Positions 1 through 13,231 of a stretch of DNA of 13,232 bases are shown in pieces (positions within the stretch are counted from its first letter, which is position 1; every line of letters begins with the position of its first letter). Source of the DNA: a virus; the UHGV virus genome UHGV-0297100; one strand, written 5' to 3'. The notes under the pieces are model-generated. The model made no database searches, had not been told where the DNA came from, and was given only the letters and a program-made list of their open reading frames with translations. A program made the translations under genes and the position numbers.

Positions 1-145
1 GAACTGCGCCGCAGTAACGATATCCTTCGCCAGGCTTCCGCTTATTTTGCGAAGGCGGAGTTCGACCGCCTCTGGAAAAAATGATGCCACTGCTGGATAA
101 GCTGCGTGAGCAGTACGGGGTCGGACCGCTATGCAGCGAACAATC
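1..145 (+). mobile_element. Truncated IS3-family insertion sequence fragment (IS629/IS3411-like) covering the orfA 3' end and orfB 5' start
   Basis: Frame 1 from the window edge reads ELRRSNDILRQASAYFAKAEFDRLWKK*, a leucine-zipper C-terminus typical of IS3-family OrfA. A second frame starts MMPLLDKLREQYGVGPLCSE at 82, typical of OrfB, with an A-run (GGAAAAAATGATG) at the overlap. The OrfB frame stops after about 30 codons, so the element is truncated near 145. Family assignment is from memory. Confidence 0.65.
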
Positions 146-1053: not shown

Positions 1054-1521
1054 TTATTTCAGGCACTGAGTACGGATATATTCCTGCGCCCCTTCCAGTT
1101 GCTTCTGCATCGTCATCAGCCGCTCTCTGAGGGTGAAATAATCCCGTGTAACGGTGTCTGCCAGTTGGGGGCCGGTTGCATTATCCACGCGGGCGGTGCC
1201 GGTGGCTTCACGCACGGGACCTGGACAGGTGGCGTTGATACGCAGGCGCTTACGACCAGCGGCAACGTCAGCGCGAAGAGTTTCATTTTCAGCTTTCGCA
1301 TCAGCTAACTCCTTCGTGTATTTTGCATCGAGCGCAGCAACATCACGCTGACGCATCTGCATGTCAGTAATTGCCGCGTTCGCCAGCGTCAGTTCTCTGG
1401 CATTTTTGTCGCGCTGGGCTTTGTAGGTAATGGCGTTATCACGGTAATGATTAACAGCCCATGACAGGCAGACGATGATGCAGATAACCAGAGCGGAGAT
1501 AATCGCGGTTACTCTGTTCAT
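1054..1521 (-). CDS. Rz: Rz i-spanin (inner-membrane spanin subunit)
   Basis: From the internal Met the protein reads [44 protein letters not shown]..., closely matching lambda Rz as I recall it. That ATG overlaps the endolysin stop (ATGA). The ORF track's longer 1533 start is probably an over-extension. Confidence 0.9.
1116..1301 (-). CDS. Rz1: Rz1 o-spanin lipoprotein, embedded in Rz in the +1 frame
   Basis: 61 aa ORF entirely inside Rz in another frame. It has a lipobox-like LVVSAC and the proline-rich [30 protein letters not shown] typical of lambda Rz1. Confidence 0.85.
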
Positions 1522-2021
1522 TGCTGACCCCACAAACAGATTTCACGCTCAATCTCACGACGAGTCATGAGACCTTTCCATTGCTTACCGCCAGCATATG
1601 TCCAGCGACGTAGCTGATCACATGCGCCTTTGATATCGCCCTGGTTTATTTTGCGAAGAAGCGTCGATGTTCTGAAATTGCCAGCACCCACGTTGTAAAC
1701 GAATGAGTAAAGAGCGCCGCGCATTGTTTCCGGTATATCGACTTTGATGTACGGGTTAATTTGTCTGGCGACCGTGGCAAGGTCTTTATTCAGGAGAGCT
1801 TTGCATTCTGCTTCGGTATACGTTTTACCGAGCATGATGTCTTTTCCGGTGTGTCCGTGACATACAGTCCATACACCAACAATATCTTTGTATGGTATGT
1901 AGCTGACACCTTCCAGACCATCGTTACCACTTGGTCCAGTGATTAACACAGATGCTATAGCAATAGCCCCGCCACTTATCGCCGCTATTACGCTATTTCG
2001 TAGTGCCGGTGACATTGCCAT
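1518..2021 (-). CDS. R: Phage endolysin (lysozyme), phage-21-type with an N-terminal signal-anchor-release (SAR) segment
   Basis: N-terminal weakly hydrophobic Gly/Ala-rich segment [17 protein letters not shown] followed by a lysozyme-like domain ([25 protein letters not shown]...). It sits between the holin and Rz and overlaps the holin 3' end. The exact start (M1 or M3) is unresolved. Confidence 0.9.
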
Positions 2022-2687: not shown

Positions 2688-3200
2688 TTAAACGGTATGA
2701 TATTTCATTCTGGCGGCCTCAAAAGCCGCAGCGGCAAGTTCGGCAGTATCATGGTATCCAAGGTTAATACACTTTCCAGACGCATTAATTCTTGCTCTCC
2801 ATTTCCCGTACTTAGCATCCCAAGACACGCCACGGTATCCAGATTTATTATTCTTCTGAATTTTCCTGTTCTGCATATTTTCGGAATGAGTGACAAGACG
2901 AAGATTTGATATCCGGTTATCTGTTCTTACCCTGTTGATGTGATCAATAAAACCATCGGGCATGGTGCCATAAACAATCAACCATGCCAGTCTGTGAGCA
3001 GGGTATGCTTTACCATTAATCATAATCATTAAATACCCATCAGAATTTATTGATGAGCATTTCTTGAAAGCAAAACGAGAGTTCCATGTCAAAGTGGTCC
3101 TCTCTCTTCCCCGCCTCCATCTCCAGTGAAAGTCGCCTGATGATGGATTGTAATCAACAACAGAAAGCACCATTTCTGGCGTTAATTTTATTTCTTTCAT
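2688..3200 (-). CDS. HNH endonuclease with a C-terminal AP2-type DNA-binding domain (homing-endonuclease-like moron)
   Basis: HNH motif region HRLAWLIVYGTMPDGFIDHINRVRTDNRISNLRLVTHSENMQN, followed by an AP2-like segment SGYRGVSWDAKYGKWRARINASGKCINLGYHDTAELAAAAFEAA. RBS AAGG upstream of ATGAAAGAAATA. Appears AT-richer than its neighbours by eye. Confidence 0.8.
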   Translation of the reverse strand: MKEIKLTPEMVLSVVDYNPSSGDFHWRWRRGRERTTLTWNSRFAFKKCSSINSDGYLMIMINGKAYPAHRLAWLIVYGTMPDGFIDHINRVRTDNRISNLRLVTHSENMQNRKIQKNNKSGYRGVSWDAKYGKWRARINASGKCINLGYHDTAELAAAAFEAARMKYHTV

Positions 3201-3387: not shown

Positions 3388-3417
3388 ATTATGGCTAAAT
3401 GGCTAATTGCATGTCAA
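3388..3417 (-). promoter_or_regulatory. Candidate late promoter pR' overlapping the 3' end of Q
   Basis: Minus strand TTGACA (3417..3412), an 18-nt spacer, then CATAAT (3393..3388). The Q stop codon TAG (3397..3395) lies inside the spacer. The position just downstream of Q matches lambdoid pR'/qut architecture. Confidence 0.5.
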
Positions 3418-3913
3418 GGCTTTTAACAGCAACATGCTTAACTTTCTCAACACGTTTACGCATTTTGAAAGCATTTTGCATTGGTTGGTACAAAACAAAT
3501 AACGACGCTTTCAGGATGTCGTCAATTTCGTTTCTACAGGTTGCCAGTGAAGGTTTTCTCCATCCCTCGCCACCACGTCCACACATCTTGCGTGGCTTTG
3601 CAGTCGCGTGATAGTAGGATGCAATTGCTCGCTTAGATGAACCATGAGCGTAGTAGCTGAGGAGGATGCCAAAGGCTTTCTTGTCAATGTACATGACGGA
3701 ATCGACGACCTGAGAAATCAACATTCCATCATCATCATTACACATTGGCCTTGTCATAACTCTTCCCGGCTCTACGCTCTCCATGAACTTCGCTATTACG
3801 CTGCTCATGCGCTTTTCCAGACGACCTGAATAAACCCATGCGCCCCACAGCTCAAGCCAGCCATTCAGCCAATCGTGCTGTTCTTTGGTGAGGTTTAGCT
3901 CTCTTATGCTCAT
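3395..3913 (-). CDS. Q: Late-gene antiterminator Q (Phage_antitermQ family)
   Basis: Motifs WLELWGAWVYSG...TRPMCNDDDGMLISQVV match the conserved ERWGAW...SRP.C.DDD pattern of QuuD-type Q proteins. It directly follows ninH, and its start overlaps the ninH stop (ATGA). Confidence 0.8.
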   Translation of the reverse strand: MSIRELNLTKEQHDWLNGWLELWGAWVYSGRLEKRMSSVIAKFMESVEPGRVMTRPMCNDDDGMLISQVVDSVMYIDKKAFGILLSYYAHGSSKRAIASYYHATAKPRKMCGRGGEGWRKPSLATCRNEIDDILKASLFVLYQPMQNAFKMRKRVEKVKHVAVKSLDMQLAI

Positions 3914-8048: not shown

Positions 8049-8891
8049 TCACTCCTGCGCCCATGAAGGCATTTCAGTTTGTCCGTAATCTTTGGTGGCA
8101 AAGTTTTCCTGCATAGCTCGATGCTGCGGCCTCGGTTGAGATTTCCCCTTTGGAGTCTTGGGCTCAAAAATCCCCTGCCAACCACTGGCGATGCTCTGGT
8201 TTATAATTTCTTCAGGTGTATATCCCTTCTCCAGACTTCTGCTTAGAACGTTGATAGCCTGAGTGACACTTTGCTTAGACTTGATCGACTTACCTATCTC
8301 CTTGCGATAGGTAACCCACGACAACCATGTTTCTGCTGATAACCAATCAGGCAACTCTGTTTCTAGCGGGTCGAACTTCTGAGAAACTTTTTTGGGGGAT
8401 ATAGGGGGTTTATTAATATTTTCTTTTGTCTTTAAAGAATGTCTTTTGTGTGTCTCTAACTTCGAGACATTGAGTGTCTCTAATTTGGAGACATTTTTTG
8501 TCTCTAACTTCGAGACAAAGTTGCTAACTTGGAGACACTTGCTGAATTGCCACGCAGATACCTCACTGTTTACACCGATTTGATTTCCATCCATAAACAG
8601 GCAATTCATTGAAATCAGTTCTTTTTTAGCCTTGTTAACATTCTGCCTTGACAGTCCTGTTAACTGAGCAATTTGCTCATCGGCTATTCGATCTGTTTTC
8701 TTATTGAATCCATATGTTTTCCGGACGTAGGCCAGCATAACTTTCAACTGGCGAGCGGTTAAATCGGCACTTGCGATAGCTTCCAGCAGCTCGTTAGCGA
8801 ATCTGGTGTAACCATCATCGATATCAGCCACTCTTCGCTCCTGTTCAACAGGTTCACTCTTCGGCAGGTAAAATACTTCAGCAAGGCTCAT
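8049..8891 (-). CDS. O: Replication initiator protein O (lambda O-like)
   Basis: Gene upstream of the DnaC-like loader. The coding sequence contains the origin iterons, reflected in the protein repeats VSKLETKNVSKLETLNVSKLET. Start taken at MSLAEVFYLPK..., with GGAGG upstream. Confidence 0.85.
   Translation of the reverse strand: MSLAEVFYLPKSEPVEQERRVADIDDGYTRFANELLEAIASADLTARQLKVMLAYVRKTYGFNKKTDRIADEQIAQLTGLSRQNVNKAKKELISMNCLFMDGNQIGVNSEVSAWQFSKCLQVSNFVSKLETKNVSKLETLNVSKLETHKRHSLKTKENINKPPISPKKVSQKFDPLETELPDWLSAETWLSWVTYRKEIGKSIKSKQSVTQAINVLSRSLEKGYTPEEIINQSIASGWQGIFEPKTPKGKSQPRPQHRAMQENFATKDYGQTEMPSWAQE
8451..8537. repeat. Replication origin iterons inside O
   Basis: Three near-identical 19-bp palindromic units TGTCTCTAA(C/T)TT(C/G)GAGACA at 8451-8469, 8475-8493 and 8499-8517, with 24-bp periodicity, plus a degenerate fourth at about 8522-8537. 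An AT-rich stretch at about 8395-8450 flanks them. Confidence 0.85.
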
Positions 8892-9522
8892 TTCCAACCT
8901 CCGCATCAAAGCATTGGGCTTCAAGAGACTTAACCATCACCACACTGCCATCTGTATTAATAACTATCGATGAGTTATATTTGCTTATCAGTTGCTTCGC
9001 GTAATCAATTCCGGCGCGAATAAGGAAATTTTTCACCGCAGGAAGATGACCAACTACACTACCCAGACCTTGCTCTATAAGCTCCTCATTAAGATCAAGC
9101 TCATTTTCATGGCGAAAAGAAATGAATGAGTCGTAAATTGCGTATTCTGCCGTCTCGCCATTTCTTTCAGGGCCAACCAGCGCCCTTATTTCATTTAGAG
9201 ATTCAGAAAGATCATTATCTTCAAGCTTGAAAAACTCTCGATTATCACTAAGCCTCTCTTTTGCAAAGGCTTTATGAATGAGTTTTTCATCTGATGCGGG
9301 ATTATTTGAATGAAAGGCTGCTATCACCTTAAATGGCTTAGGAACGCCAGTAGAGGCTGAAATTTCTTTAGCCCTAACTTCTGGTGAATGCTTAGTCATC
9401 CCAATCTTATAAATTCCTGGCATGCACTCATTCGAAAGCACATAAACAAAGCCATTTGATTTAAAATCATCTGGCACCTTCATGCTCTTCAGAACCTGGA
9501 ATTTGTCATTTTCGTATGTCAT
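8878..9522 (-). CDS. T5orf172 / GIY-YIG-like domain protein (moron between cII and O)
   Basis: N-terminal motif GFVYVLSNECMPGIYKIGMTKHSPEVRAKEI fits the T5orf172 / GIY-YIG-like pattern. GGGAG lies six nt upstream of the ATG. AT-rich by eye. Domain call is from motif memory. Confidence 0.55.
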   Translation of the reverse strand: MTYENDKFQVLKSMKVPDDFKSNGFVYVLSNECMPGIYKIGMTKHSPEVRAKEISASTGVPKPFKVIAAFHSNNPASDEKLIHKAFAKERLSDNREFFKLEDNDLSESLNEIRALVGPERNGETAEYAIYDSFISFRHENELDLNEELIEQGLGSVVGHLPAVKNFLIRAGIDYAKQLISKYNSSIVINTDGSVVMVKSLEAQCFDAEVGNEPC

Positions 9523-9554: not shown

Positions 9555-9851
9555 TCAGAATTGCATATCAATTTGCTTAAAATCCTCGGTGGCGGCCGGG
9601 GATTTTTTCTTTGTGATTTCATCAAGCGCATACTTAAAAGCCCTGCTAATCGGACTGATGTCTGATGCCATTCCGAAAGCACACAAGACCGAAGCAATAA
9701 ATCTCCAGTCCGTTCTGCTTATCTTCGATTCATGACAGCCAATCATCTTTGCCAGACCGCGCTGGGTAAGCGTTGACAGGTTGATGAGTAAATCTGTTTC
9801 TGCGCGATCAACGTCGCGCTGTGATAGTTTGCTGTAACTTGTTTGTTCCAT
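9555..9851 (-). CDS. cII: CII transcriptional activator
   Basis: 98 aa ending KKKSPAATEDFKQIDMQF, matching the lambda CII C-terminus (KKRPAATERSEQIQMEF). Located between cro/nutR and the replication genes. Confidence 0.85.
   Translation of the reverse strand: MEQTSYSKLSQRDVDRAETDLLINLSTLTQRGLAKMIGCHESKISRTDWRFIASVLCAFGMASDISPISRAFKYALDEITKKKSPAATEDFKQIDMQF
9584..9611 (+). terminator. Rho-independent terminator antisense to the cII 3' region (oop-RNA-like)
   Basis: Plus strand CCTCGG-TGGCGG-CCGGGG (stem with one G-U pair) followed by ATTTTTTCTTT. It is on the strand opposite cII, within the cII 3' coding region, as for lambda oop. Confidence 0.55.
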
Positions 9852-9936
9852 TTCTTAATATTTCCAATAGTGAATAGTTAGTTGAAAGGTATGCGTGGAA
9901 ACGCATATGACCTTAGTTGGTCAGATATATTGGGAC

Positions 9937-9951
9937 TCGCTTTGTCAGCGA
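9937..9951 (-). promoter_or_regulatory. nutR boxB-like hairpin
   Basis: Minus strand TCGC-TGACAAA-GCGA has the same 7-nt loop as the nutL boxB (GCGC-TGACAAA-GCGC) upstream of N. It lies just downstream of cro, with a possible boxA-like CGCTATTTT about 20 nt upstream. Confidence 0.6.
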
Positions 9952-9989
9952 CGTAGGACGAATGTCCATTGTGAAAATAGCGGTGTTAC

Positions 9990-10217
9990 TTATGCAGCCA
10001 GAAGGTTCTTTTTGCTTATTTCAAGCATTTCGCTTGCTTGATATTTGCCACCAGAAATCTCTTCGATTTTTGATGCGTATTTCGTTTTCCCAAAAAACTC
10101 AGTCTTAGGGAGGAAGCCGTTTTTGAGCCACTTATAGACAGCCCTTTCGCTAACTCCACAAGCCTTCGCAACTTCAGGGATGCCGACACCTTTAATCGGC
10201 TCATCAAGATTTTGCAT
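9990..10217 (-). CDS. cro: Cro-like repressor (HTH)
   Basis: Start taken at MQNLDEPIK..., with AAGGA upstream. HTH segment IPEVAKACGVSERAVYKWLKNG. Divergent from cI across the operator region. Confidence 0.7.
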   Translation of the reverse strand: MQNLDEPIKGVGIPEVAKACGVSERAVYKWLKNGFLPKTEFFGKTKYASKIEEISGGKYQASEMLEISKKNLLAA

Positions 10218-10232
10218 AGGGATATCCTTTTT

Positions 10233-10303
10233 CGTACTTTCAGTACGCATTATGATTGAACTGAAAGTTTTTGCAAGTGCTTTAGTATCGTACTCATGGT
10301 TCA
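10233..10303. promoter_or_regulatory. OR operator region with divergent PR/PRM promoters
   Basis: Perfect palindrome CGTACTTTCAGTACG (10233-10247), plus related sites TGAACT-GAA-AGTTTT (10257-10271) and CGTACT-CAT-GGTTCA (10289-10303, overlapping the cI ATG). Minus-strand PR candidate TTGCAA (10271-10276), about 16-17 nt spacer, CATAAT/ATAATG. Confidence 0.7.
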
Positions 10304-11003
10304 GAATGAAAAAGTGCGCAAAGAATTCGCCCAGCGGCTAGCGCAAGCCTGTAAAGAAGCTGGTCTTGATGAACATGGTAGGGGAATGGCTATAGCCCGT
10401 GCCCTTTCTCTTTCGTCCAAAGGCGTTAGCAAATGGTTTAATGCTGAGTCTTTACCGCGTCAGGAAAAAATGAATGCGCTTGCGAAATTTCTAAACGTTG
10501 ATGTTGTTTGGCTTCAGCACGGCACTTCGTTAAATGGAGCGAATGATGAAGATACTCTTTCATTTGTTGGCAAATTAAAAAAAGGGTTAGTGCGCGTGGT
10601 TGGTGAGGCAATTCTTGGTGTTGATGGTGCCATCGAGATGACCGAAGAGCGCGATGGGTGGCTCAAGATTTATAGCGATGATCCAGATGCCTTTGGTCTT
10701 CGTGTAAAAGGAGACAGCATGTGGCCTAGAATAAAATCAGGAGAATATGTACTCATTGAGCCTAACACCAAAGTATTCCCGGGTGATGAGGTGTTTGTCA
10801 GAACCGTTGAAGGACACAACATGATCAAAGTTCTTGGCTATGACAGAGACGGAGAATACCAGTTTACAAGCATCAACCAGGACCATAGGCCAATAACGTT
10901 GCCTTATCATCAAGTAGCAAAGGTGGAGTATGTGGCTGGTATTCTGAAGCAATCTCGCCATCTGGATGACATCGAGGCAAGGGAGTGGCTGAAAAGTTCG
11001 TGA
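10296..11003 (+). CDS. cI: CI repressor (N-terminal HTH, C-terminal LexA/S24-like autocleavage domain)
   Basis: 235 aa with an N-terminal HTH region and a C-terminal S24 peptidase-like domain (GDSMWP serine, MIKVL lysine). Divergent from cro. Confidence 0.9.
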   Translation: MVQNEKVRKEFAQRLAQACKEAGLDEHGRGMAIARALSLSSKGVSKWFNAESLPRQEKMNALAKFLNVDVVWLQHGTSLNGANDEDTLSFVGKLKKGLVRVVGEAILGVDGAIEMTEERDGWLKIYSDDPDAFGLRVKGDSMWPRIKSGEYVLIEPNTKVFPGDEVFVRTVEGHNMIKVLGYDRDGEYQFTSINQDHRPITLPYHQVAKVEYVAGILKQSRHLDDIEAREWLKSS

Positions 11004-11080
11004 CCTCATCGTCACATAGCTGGTAGCCAGTGGCCTGAAGAGACGTTTGGGTGATAGGTAAAACACATCAAGGATAATCA

Positions 11081-11518
11081 GTGGAACAGGAAAAGATTTC
11101 TTTTGTCTATCCGACGCTAATGCGTGAAGGCATGTTCGCAGGTGGTATTTATGTACCTGACCTGTCAATGGTCATTGATAGAAAAGAGCAAAAAACACCA
11201 ATCGCCGTTACGGCTGGATTCTTGATGAAATCAGTCGAAATGTACGTTATTGAAGTCGAAATAAATGCGATGGATGCCCCATCTCCAACTGAGCATAGCC
11301 TTTCTGGTCACATTCAAACAAAGTACATTGAGAGAATAAAATACGGCGGAAAGTTAGCTGTCTATACCATGCTTTCCGAGAATGCTGACCTAAACAATGA
11401 TGGTTTTTACAGGGTTGTTGTAAGGTTCTATAAGACGTCTAATGGAGAGAAAGTCGGCAATTGCTTAGATGAAAAAGATTGTTTTTTCTATGTTTCGCAT
11501 AAGGACTCAGGGGAATGA
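11081..11518 (+). CDS. Hypothetical soluble protein, first gene of a two-gene module downstream of cI
   Basis: 145 aa ORF starting at GTG with AAGGA six nt upstream. No recognisable domain and no predicted TM segment. Its stop overlaps the next ATG (GAATGAGC). AT-rich by eye. Confidence 0.6.
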   Translation: MEQEKISFVYPTLMREGMFAGGIYVPDLSMVIDRKEQKTPIAVTAGFLMKSVEMYVIEVEINAMDAPSPTEHSLSGHIQTKYIERIKYGGKLAVYTMLSENADLNNDGFYRVVVRFYKTSNGEKVGNCLDEKDCFFYVSHKDSGE

Positions 11519-11817
11519 GCAAATCGCATTTGTATGTTGTTCCTACAAACAATGAACCCTTGGTTGAAAATCACCCACAAGAAGATGATAATCATAAATA
11601 TGGAAATGGCGGTGGGGGTGATGACATGCTTGAAAGGGTCAAAAAGCTAGAAGAACAAATGGCATCACTTGTTACAGATGTTGCTGTAATTAAGTCTAAC
11701 TATGCCACCAAAGAAGATTTGCACAAAGAGATTGGATCGCAGACAAAGTGGATTGCAGCAACCATAATCGGCACGACCGGTTTAGCTTTGGCTGTCGCTA
11801 AGTATCTTTTTGCCTGA
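11515..11817 (+). CDS. Hypothetical small membrane protein (coiled coil plus C-terminal transmembrane helix), second gene of the module
   Basis: 100 aa with an acidic Gly-rich N-terminus (GNGGGGDD), a coiled-coil-like LERVKKLEEQMASLVTDVAVIK, and a C-terminal hydrophobic helix WIAATIIGTTGLALAVAKYLFA. Translationally coupled to the upstream gene. Confidence 0.6.
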   Translation: MSKSHLYVVPTNNEPLVENHPQEDDNHKYGNGGGGDDMLERVKKLEEQMASLVTDVAVIKSNYATKEDLHKEIGSQTKWIAATIIGTTGLALAVAKYLFA

Positions 11818-11838
11818 CATCTGAAACTCAAGCAACCA

Positions 11839-11866
11839 ACCCGGCCTCAGCGCCGGGTTTTCTTTG
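11839..11866 (+). terminator. Rho-independent terminator ending the cI operon (tImm-like)
   Basis: ACCCGGC-CTCAGC-GCCGGGT forms a 7-bp GC-rich stem followed by TTTTCTTTG, immediately after the module's stop codon. Confidence 0.7.
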
Positions 11867-11997
11867 CCTACCCCCCAAAAAAACACATAACCAATTGTAT
11901 TTGTTGATGTAACTCACTAAACCATGCAGTTCTGATCCCTGCCGCATAACCTTCATCAGCCACATTTTCAAAAATAAATTTCCTTATATATCAGAAT

Positions 11998-12074
11998 CAT
12001 ACTTCGTAGAGTTAATAAATCACCAAAATTCGTACCAATAGTTCTTGATAATGTCGAACTATTGGTTCATTATT
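11998..12074. promoter_or_regulatory. OL operator region with candidate pL promoter
   Basis: Sites with the same half-site family as OR: CGTACC-AAT-AGTTCT (12031-12045), CGAACT-ATT-GGTTCA (12055-12069) and a weaker CATACT-TCG-TAGAGT (11998-12012). Together they form an 11-bp inverted repeat (ACCAATAGTTC / GAACTATTGGT). Candidate -35 TTGATA (12046-12051), with CATTAT/TATTAT about 16-19 nt downstream. Confidence 0.55.
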
Positions 12075-12142
12075 ATCGTCATCAGCAGGACGCATTACTC
12101 ACCATGGCGGTGAATATACAACGATTCAAATATGAATCTACG

Positions 12143-12157
12143 GCGCTGACAAAGCGC
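12143..12157 (+). promoter_or_regulatory. nutL boxB hairpin
   Basis: GCGC-TGACAAA-GCGC hairpin about 165 nt upstream of the N start codon, matching the P22-type boxB as I recall it and the nutR copy on the other arm. Confidence 0.7.
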
Positions 12158-12322
12158 AATAACCAAAGTGAACTTTGGGGTGTGGTGAAGGGTTCATGGA
12201 CGGGAATATGTCGCACGTAAAGCGGCGAGGCCTGCGGGACTATTGCCGAATTGAAGTAGGCCGAAACAGGTCGAAATGGGTCTCCCACCTACCACACCAC
12301 CAAAGTTCATCAGGAGGTCTAT

Positions 12323-12706
12323 ATGACACGCAGAACTCAGTTCAAAGGCAATTCACGTTCTCGTCGTCGTGAGCGTTTAAAGGCAAAGGCATTAGCTAAC
12401 GGCGTGCTGGCCCGCGAAGAAGCAATAAGTTCAGAAGTATTACACCGCCCTACTCTAAGCAGAGCGCAGATTCAGGCTAAAGGTACTCACGAAACGCCTG
12501 AGCGCATAGAAGACGCTAAGCCAATTAAGTTCATGGCACAGGACGTGATCTGGCAACAGAAAGAATACAGACGCAATCTGGAGAGAGCGGCCATTGTGTA
12601 CGCGAATGAGTTTGGACATAAGCAACCAGAAACTGGTGTATGTCTTCCAAACGTAGCCATTTACGCGGCAGGCTACAGGAAATCAAAACAACTGACGGCG
12701 AGATGA
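12323..12706 (+). CDS. N: N-like antitermination protein (P22 gp24 / phage-21 N type)
   Basis: Arginine-rich N-terminal motif GNSRSRRRERLKAKA and C-terminus AIYAAGYRKSKQLTAR, resembling P22 gp24 (ALYAAGHRKSKQITAR). Strong RBS (GGAGG) and an upstream nutL boxB. Confidence 0.75.
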   Translation: MTRRTQFKGNSRSRRRERLKAKALANGVLAREEAISSEVLHRPTLSRAQIQAKGTHETPERIEDAKPIKFMAQDVIWQQKEYRRNLERAAIVYANEFGHKQPETGVCLPNVAIYAAGYRKSKQLTAR

Positions 12707-12721
12707 TAAATCATTTGCTAA

Positions 12722-13231
12722 TTACTTGTTTTTGCCATGCTTATCCTGAGCGATAAGTTCATCCATAAGACTGTCTTTCTTCCCAGCAAACCTAATGTAG
12801 CACTCATTTCTATAGCGTTCCGGGATAACAAAACGGTCGATTTCAGGATATCCAGTAGCAGAAGGTATCCGAATAAGAAGCCCTTTTTCGAGCAATGAGA
12901 TTGCTTCAGGGCTTCCCTTTTCTGTCTTTAGCTGGTTATTCGCGGCTACAGCGAATGCCAAATACGCTCTTTCTCCAAGAGTTAACGAATCAAACAAATC
13001 TTGCACATATTTTTCTTCTTTAGATTTGCGCTTCTGAGCAGCGGATACCTCAATTCTTTCAGTCACAGCGTGATAAGCGGAATTAACAACACCGTTAAGC
13101 ACATAGCTAACGCAGAACAACAGGATGTAATACATCCAATAATGAGGAAGGATTTCTGGATTATGCAGGTTTATCCATTCTTTTACGCTTACCGGCATAA
13201 CAATAATCAATATGATCAGGATGATTAGCAT
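12722..13231 (-). CDS. Membrane protein convergent with N, possibly SieB-like superinfection exclusion protein (may extend beyond the window)
   Basis: 169 aa ORF reaching the window edge. Two N-terminal hydrophobic segments (LIILIILIIVMPV, YWMYYILLFCVSYVLNGVV) followed by a soluble domain. Opposite strand to N, as for lambda/P22 sieB. The family assignment is tentative. Confidence 0.35.
   Translation of the reverse strand: MLIILIILIIVMPVSVKEWINLHNPEILPHYWMYYILLFCVSYVLNGVVNSAYHAVTERIEVSAAQKRKSKEEKYVQDLFDSLTLGERAYLAFAVAANNQLKTEKGSPEAISLLEKGLLIRIPSATGYPEIDRFVIPERYRNECYIRFAGKKDSLMDELIAQDKHGKNK

Follow-up and report, generated by a model that had tools for sequence, protein, structure and literature searches.

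What is encoded in the slot between the repressor gene and PL/N of a lambda-like prophage when its occupant is not RexAB? The slot is the site of RexAB, the oldest known phage-exclusion system, and most of its other occupants are unstudied. The question was raised by the virus genome UHGV-0297100, in which two small genes, designated here A and B, lie in that position. The stretch that was analysed, called the window, is 13,232 nucleotides long and is part of a lambda-like E. coli prophage. An earlier interpretation made from the letters of the window without database searches (the sequence-only reading) had proposed the pair as a candidate exclusion or abortive-infection system. As judged from the sequence analysis, the chances are about even that the cassette is a phage-exclusion module, consisting of a swappable sensor and a membrane effector that would be expressed with the repressor. 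Several observations support this interpretation, 1) the position of the pair is linked to the repressor, 2) the cassette moves independently, 3) the slot is a swap site, 4) the partner of B is swappable, 5) a related pair is found in an island context, 6) A is divergent and 7) B has remote similarity to proteins linked to membrane lesions.

The gene structure agreed with the sequence-only reading. The two genes are on the same strand as cI, are coupled by a stop/start overlap (ATGA, in which the start of B overlaps the TGA stop of A) and are followed by a terminator, all at the positions that had been given (Table 1). Gene A was confirmed to have a GTG start and the ribosome binding site AAGGA (11069-11073), seven bases 5' of the GTG. 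The terminator stem has 8 bp, including 6 G-C pairs (-17.3 kcal/mol, z = -2.9). In the leader, the promoter-like hexamers GTGATA-16-GATAAT match the consensus at 9 of 12 positions; such sites were not enriched relative to shuffled sequence. The pair is indeed more AT-rich than the backbone, although the difference is modest (GC content: A and B 40.7%, window 44.9%, cI 45.6%, N 48.7%). Flanked by cI upstream and by nutL and N downstream, the pair lies in the repressor operon location, between cI and PL/N, and therefore occupies the exact place of rexA-rexB in lambda, as had been claimed. Gene order, together with the observation that in relatives the pair is translationally coupled to the repressor, suggests that A and B are co-transcribed with the repressor, and the pair is presumably expressed in lysogens.

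Comparison with related prophages (loci with L numbers) indicated that 11025-11868 is a discrete, self-contained accessory cassette of 0.84 kb. Homology with phage PhiR12 stops at 11025 and resumes at 11840. Conversely, homology of the cassette itself starts at 11025-11028 in L011, L012, L094 and L099 and ends at 11868 in L012 and L094. L012, L094 and L099 are prophages with cI alleles different from that of the window, and copies of the cassette with 93-99% DNA identity were found behind four different cI alleles. In L095, L096 and L099, the cassette is one nonsynonymous change away from that of the window while the flanks are ~92% identical, which indicates recent horizontal transfer between prophages. 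In L011 and L013 (myovirus-type prophage), the pair is flanked by a dinI-like gene on one side and tail-fibre genes on the other, with homology again from 11025. The cI gene of the window is 97-99% identical in DNA to that of PhiR12 and the Stx2a phages, and these phages have an unrelated 341-residue gene (phrog_6191) at the same junctions. By these alignments, the slot downstream of cI is a swap site. The phrog_6191 protein of Escherichia phage PhiR12_1 (L001 3289-4314), annotated 'T2SS GspM containing', is itself an uncharacterised occupant of the slot, and had no match in PADLOC.

Exchange was also evident within the cassette. In Edwardsiella L004, A is 21% identical to its counterpart in the window and the N-terminal tail of B 42% identical (mostly in the Gly run), whereas the unit that extends from Met38 to the end of B is 97% identical, and DNA homology to the window starts at 11604. 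The reverse was seen in L011, where A and the B tail are each 97% identical and the Met38-to-end unit 39%. As judged from these pairs of sequences, the Met38-to-end unit of B recombines independently. Moreover, A is not the only partner. A second family of 90-146 residues with two CxxC pairs (zinc-ribbon type), unrelated to A, lies upstream of B in Mixta, Oceanimonas, Yersinia (in the order cI, pair, N) and Halomonas (downstream of cI); in Pectobacterium it does so with tail genes on one side and the tape-measure gene on the other. In a survey of IMG/VR, 74 loci were collected with the B profile and the upstream partner was classed. The partner was of the zinc-ribbon type in 27 loci and of the A type in 23, another open reading frame (ORF) in 7 and not detected in 13; three of the remaining loci were cut by a contig end and one had a tandem B. 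An S24-type repressor was present just upstream in 16 of the 23 A-type loci.

The settings of the zinc-ribbon pairs were not confined to repressor operons. In Mixta, the pair forms a two-gene islet among core genes. In Oceanimonas baumannii (L034 2303-6829), it belongs to a tRNA-linked island, with PD-T7-4 (4e-77) on one side and a type IV retron reverse transcriptase (7e-177) on the other. The order of genes in this island is a RelA/SpoT-like gene (PDC-S33, a PADLOC candidate family), S24, PD-T7-4, the zinc-ribbon partner, the B-like gene and the retron reverse transcriptase, and the B-like protein has two YATKED repeats. By analogy, occurrence in repressor operons, at tail-moron sites and in islands is a distribution like that of autonomous accessory modules, defence systems in particular.

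Protein A had been described as soluble with no recognisable domain, and this description held: no match was found in Pfam, NCBIfam or PADLOC, nor was there a signal peptide or a hydrophobic segment typical of a membrane span. Lacking both, A should be cytoplasmic. A matched phrog_5893 (2.8e-6) over residues 1-141 of 145. The AlphaFold2 model obtained from the family alignment was all-beta with eight strands (predicted local distance difference test, pLDDT, 80.8; predicted template modelling score, pTM, 0.78) and, according to this model, A is an immunoglobulin (Ig)-like beta-sandwich. A structure search of BFVD with A returned uncharacterised phage proteins of similar size, and the A profile matched no solved structure in a sequence search. 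The members of the family are ~20% identical to each other, yet have the same length and fold; to judge by this divergence, A is fast-evolving.

Protein B matched phrog_6324 (2.3e-17), and the family alignment divided it into four parts: a variable acidic tail (residues 1-29), a conserved Gly run (G-N-G-G-G-G-D-D), a conserved helix that begins at Met38 (MLERVKKLE...) and contains Y63-A-T-K-E-D68, and a hydrophobic C-terminus. Residues 1-37 have a net charge of -5 and include five Gly. In the AlphaFold2 model, residues 1-35 were disordered and residues 36-99 formed a single helix; the hydrophobic C-terminus, which is conserved across the family, was helical. Thus, of the architecture proposed in the sequence-only reading, the acidic Gly-containing N-terminus and the coiled-coil stretch stood, while the C-terminal membrane span scored only borderline. 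In trimeric alpha/beta coiled coils, beta-layers are formed by the consensus [aliphatic]-A-T-K-[polar]-[DE], which is also characteristic of the DUF1640 membrane proteins (PMC4786415). YATKED fits this consensus except that its first position is aromatic rather than aliphatic. In the B family, T65 and D68 are invariant and K60, S61, N62 and Y63 nearly so, and the family profile matched the Tcar0761 construct 5apz (expectation value, E = 7e-4). These features suggest that B is a trimeric tail-anchored protein with its mass facing the cytoplasm.

The sequence around Met38 suggests a second start. This residue is invariant in 45-47 homologues. Most homologues have GGA GGT GAT GAC ATG at this position, so that GGAGGT is six bases before the ATG. 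GGA, a Gly codon that is rare in enterobacteria, is used in the Shine-Dalgarno-like site. The predicted duplex with the anti-Shine-Dalgarno sequence at Met38 (-9.7 kcal/mol) is in the top 1.2% among the 562 ATGs of the window. In 13 of 14 homologues, the corresponding value is -9.5 to -13.4 kcal/mol, and it always exceeds that of the long start. In addition, gene callers annotate B forms of 62-63 residues in several genomes. Because of the Shine-Dalgarno-like site, the invariant Met38 and the annotated short forms, and with the long frame still kept open, it is likely that B is made in two forms, of 100 and 63 residues.

The exact A and B proteins are encoded in draft assemblies of E. coli and of the Enterobacter cloacae complex, all annotated as hypothetical. 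A megablast search of 5,426 complete E. coli genomes with the module returned a match to the terminator only, and 50,697 phage records searched with A by tblastn gave no match. A has few close relatives; 32 clusters were recovered with a profile and, when the search was made exhaustive, 87 representatives at 50% identity. Almost all are single-domain proteins of 131-153 residues that matched end to end. The epsilon34-type A protein is present on at least 1000 Salmonella contigs. B has 154 homologues across the Enterobacterales, with relatives also in other Proteobacteria. More distant B-like proteins of 78-110 residues, sometimes in tandem (L018, L025, L026, L041, L043 and others), were set aside as a separate chromosomal branch; their genes adjoin AraC-type regulators, DsbD or peptidases in non-phage settings, and have neither an A nor a zinc-ribbon partner.

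The order A-type gene, then B-type gene, with codons that overlap or abut, recurs in Edwardsiella, Serratia, Pantoea, Dryocola, Brenneria, Xenorhabdus, Photorhabdus and Morganella. The co-occurrence of pair and repressor extends beyond the window to Salmonella phage epsilon34 and several Enterobacterales genera: in the window, in epsilon34 and in Serratia, Pantoea, Brenneria, Xenorhabdus, Photorhabdus, Yersinia and Morganella, the gene directly upstream is of repressor type and has the same orientation. The repressors are S24, helix-turn-helix-only or Arc-type (Photorhabdus), and in several relatives the start of the pair overlaps the stop codon of the repressor. One gene intervenes between repressor and pair in Dryocola and in two Morganella loci, and no repressor-type gene was found upstream in Edwardsiella and one Enterobacterales metagenome-assembled genome. 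The extra gene of the Morganella prophages (L103 3832-4434; L105 3595-4176), judged by eye, begins with a signal-peptide-like sequence and has Sel1/TPR-like motifs in several copies.

If the cassette is an exclusion module, the following mechanism can be envisaged. The C-terminal segment of B would hold it in the inner membrane, and the coiled coil with its beta-layer would mediate trimerisation. B would be kept inactive by its own acidic disordered tail, by the Ig-like A, or by both, and the tail may serve as docking site. A would be the variable specificity element, for which the zinc-ribbon protein substitutes in other cassettes. On sensing a product of the infecting phage, A would free or reorganise B, which would then damage or depolarise the membrane in the style of a holin accessory protein. 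The 63-residue form probably tunes the ratio of tail-bearing to tail-less subunits. The A-B interaction, the membrane damage and the anti-phage effect would each be parts of this scheme. The broader proposal, that the cassettes constitute an unrecognised modular anti-phage family, with a trimeric beta-layer effector in two forms and interchangeable Ig-like or zinc-ribbon sensors, spread among repressor operons, tail morons and defence islands, falls somewhat short of an even chance.

Several results weigh against the exclusion module. There was no match in PADLOC-DB 2.0.0 (2023) for A, B, gp45 and gp44 of epsilon34 or the zinc-ribbon partners, and neither an NCBIfam nor an above-threshold Pfam family match for A or B. 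Full-text literature on XhlA, on epsilon34 44/45 and on the slot downstream of cI in connection with defence contained no characterisation, the newest defence catalogues and subscription papers being outside the scope of the search. The link to defence islands consists of one locus, and B is partnered there by the zinc-ribbon protein rather than by A. Nor does the generic fold of A point to any ligand. The model of B has low confidence (pLDDT 57) and its span is borderline, the best 19-residue window (80-98) having a Kyte-Doolittle mean of 1.58. The comparison of B with XhlA scored 15.4 bits (Pfam cutoff 34.7), and only 3 of 45 relatives of B matched XhlA at E <= 0.01, the best at 7.6e-4. Finally, co-variation of A and the B tail was not significant (91 pairs, rho 0.14, p 0.17); the linkage of A and tail is limited to recent recombinants, and adjacency alone may account for it.

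Three other functions were weighed against the same evidence. In the first, B, together with A, would exclude superinfecting phage from the cytoplasmic face of the inner membrane by blocking DNA entry or a host factor of that membrane on which incoming phages depend, with no killing. P22 SieA, HK97 gp15 and lactococcal Sie2009 are examples of exclusion proteins, and a small membrane protein expressed by a prophage from a moron site is the classic layout for such proteins. The location of cassettes between tail genes in Pectobacterium and beside tail-fibre genes in L011 fits this explanation. However, essentially no residues of B are left for the periplasm after W79-F99, A has neither signal peptide nor membrane segment, and partners that are hypervariable and cytoplasmic, or swappable zinc-ribbon proteins, fit intracellular sensing better. 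Exclusion without killing is therefore unlikely.

The compact operon, with a putative neutraliser first and a stop/start overlap, could belong to a toxin-antitoxin-like addiction or stress module, in which a holin-like B is neutralised by A acting on its tail. Such a module would chiefly stabilise the prophage or island, and any defence would be a by-product. In recent recombinants the partner and the B tail do move together, and the Mixta islet is autonomous and chromosomal. But neither A nor B resembles a known toxin-antitoxin family, a tail-less B made from the internal start would escape neutralisation, and two unrelated partner folds for one toxin would be unusual. An addiction module was considered quite unlikely.

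The position beside the genetic switch and the remote similarity of B to XhlA and holin types would also be expected of a regulator of the prophage's own life cycle, acting on induction, lysis timing or holin function, comparable to XhlA in PBSX or to RexA at the lambda switch. A preprint reports that lambda RexAB assists the lysogenic-to-lytic transition (bioRxiv 10.1101/2021.04.19.439022). This explanation is weakened because the window has its own complete lysis cassette 9 kb away, because near-identical phages may have or lack the cassette, and because cassettes of this type are also found in a defence island and a chromosomal islet, neither of them in a prophage; moreover, A has no DNA-binding features. 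Such a role is decidedly improbable. The last alternative, that A and B are non-functional or mis-called ORFs, for which missing annotation is the sole point, is already refuted by conservation: the order, length and start/stop overlap of the A and B homologues are kept across orders of bacteria, A is under purifying selection (pN/pS 0.13-0.18 versus L012 and L011) and has a confidently predicted fold, and the N-terminal frame of B had 0 stops in ~546 codons of 15 divergent homologues while the other frames had 24 and 78.

If the exclusion module is real, it would represent a new effector type, and two sizeable phage protein families would acquire a function. Since the partners are swappable, a defence system of this kind would offer a clear specificity handle. 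The cassette, at less than 0.85 kb, is common and small enough for direct cloning, and an internal start, as predicted here, would be unusual as a means of regulation.

The remainder of the window is consistent with the lambda-like assignment (Table 1). Positions 9800-12800 are 100% identical to L097, a contig of a draft E. coli assembly. A 19-nucleotide inverted pair (9938-9956 and 12138-12156), 95% complementary, contains GCGCTGACAAAGCGC with a boxB-like hairpin, and most likely represents the boxB hairpins of nutR and nutL. The minus strand also carries replication genes, between the T5orf172 gene and Q in reading order. Between Q and the lysis genes there is a homing-endonuclease-like ORF with HNH_3 and AP2 domains (2688-3200, minus strand). 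Just past N, a homologue of the superinfection-exclusion protein SieB (12722-13231, minus strand; PF14163, 4e-25) is cut by the end of the window; the prophage therefore has a second exclusion gene beside the cassette. At the left edge, a match to the ALIL pseudoknot, a frameshift signal of the IS3 family of insertion sequences (39-138, plus strand; Rfam 75.9 bits, gathering score 50), suggests an insertion sequence fragment.

Table 1. Coordinates of the cassette, its parts and neighbouring features in the window, with zinc-ribbon partners of other loci
Feature	Position	Strand	Remarks
Cassette leader	11025-11080	+	Left mosaic junction, AAGGA ribosome binding site, weak promoter-like site 11051-11078
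Gene A	11081-11518	+	145 residues, GTG start 11081; predicted Ig-like beta-sandwich, variable partner, putative sensor/regulator
Gene B, long form	11515-11817	+	100 residues, ATG start 11515; predicted tail-anchored coiled-coil protein, putative conserved effector
Internal Shine-Dalgarno-like GGTGGGGGTGAT and Met38 codon	11611-11622 and 11626-11628	+	Probable second start
Predicted short B isoform	11626-11817	+	63 residues; coiled coil and anchor, conserved recombination unit
Beta-layer motif Y63-A-T-K-E-D68	11701-11718	+	Trimeric alpha/beta coiled-coil signature
C-terminal hydrophobic segment W79-F99	11749-11811	+	Putative single membrane span; one residue follows
Intrinsic terminator and right mosaic junction	11838-11866	+	Hairpin 11838-11859 and T tract
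cI-type repressor	10296-11003	+	HTH_3 and Peptidase_S24; phrog_4; context, probably first gene of the operon
nutL	12138-12156	+	Inverted pair with nutR 9938-9956
N antiterminator gene	12323-12706	+	N_peptide 2e-15; phrog_271 3e-39
cro-like gene	9990-10250	-	
cII	9555-9851	-	
T5orf172/MUG113 ORF	8878-9522	-	214 residues, GIY-YIG-like; inserted between cII and replication gene
Q	3395-3913	-	
Lysis cassette, complete	holin 1993-2196; lysozyme 1518-2021; Rz 1054-1533	-	
Zinc-ribbon partners	L102 4634-5014; L100 4649-5011; L031 4583-4918; L015 4559-4924		~110-130 residues

The profile and structure searches placed A and B in uncharacterised PHROG families and predicted folds; they did not lead to a characterised function, and the similarity to XhlA was sub-threshold. 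In Salmonella phage epsilon34, gp45 and gp44 form a pair with the same order, overlap and position (repressor, pair, OL/PL, N). The genome paper of 2008 described genes 44 and 45 as 'like rexA and rexB', without database matches (PMC2629481). gp45 belongs to phrog_5893 (2e-62) and gp44 to phrog_6324 (7e-45), both families without an assigned function. A and B match both profiles, in the same order and with an overlapping stop and start, and so belong with this pair. B is 51% identical to gp44 over the C-terminal 63 residues. In contrast, A and gp45 are ~19% identical and BLASTP was not significant, so that the link rests on the profiles, and the hydrophobic C-terminus of gp44 is unlike that of B in sequence. 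The epsilon34-type pair is also present in phages g341c and NM-3.

XhlA of the Bacillus prophage PBSX (PF10779) is likewise small and combines a coiled coil in the cytoplasm with a C-terminal span, the span of B being borderline. Many B homologues are labelled 'hemolysin XhlA' by NCBI, and the remote similarities of B include PF10779 (E = 0.02), phrog_1193 hemolysin (8e-4) and phrog_689 holin (0.013). XhlA is required for holin-dependent PBSX lysis (PMC6834076, PMC5589764). However, B has cI and N, not holin and endolysin, as its neighbours, the lysis genes of the window being at 1054-2196 on the other strand, and B has an additional disordered tail and Gly run. B is XhlA-like in architecture, not a demonstrated member of the family.

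Tcar0761 and DUF1640 resemble B in the motif, in the 5apz match and, for DUF1640, in the combination of motif and membrane anchoring. Unlike them, most members of the B family have a single copy of the motif, with an aromatic first position, and DUF1640 was not among the Pfam matches of B at E <= 1. Lambda S105/S107 is a dual-start holin with two isoforms, and the two predicted in-frame starts of B would similarly give isoforms that differ at the N-terminus. The extension is two residues in lambda, whereas in B it has 37 residues and is acidic and disordered, and B had no holin family match above threshold.

Mycobacteriophage Sbash gp30 and gp31 are reportedly a two-gene, repressor-adjacent pair with a membrane protein. 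They are described as a prophage-expressed defence system of a temperate phage (PMC6426596). The phylum is different, and homology with A and B would not be expected.

Lambda RexAB, the textbook prophage exclusion system, consists of RexB, which is a polytopic protein of the membrane, and RexA, which binds DNA. It shares with A and B the arrangement of two genes in the repressor operon and the logic of a soluble and a membrane partner. There is no sequence or family relation: as the sequence-only reading had stated, neither A nor B resembles RexA or RexB, and no Rex family was among their Pfam or PHROG matches. Moreover, B has one C-terminal hydrophobic segment and is not polytopic, and A is a predicted Ig-like sandwich. 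The cassette is thus neither RexAB nor a PADLOC (2023) system.

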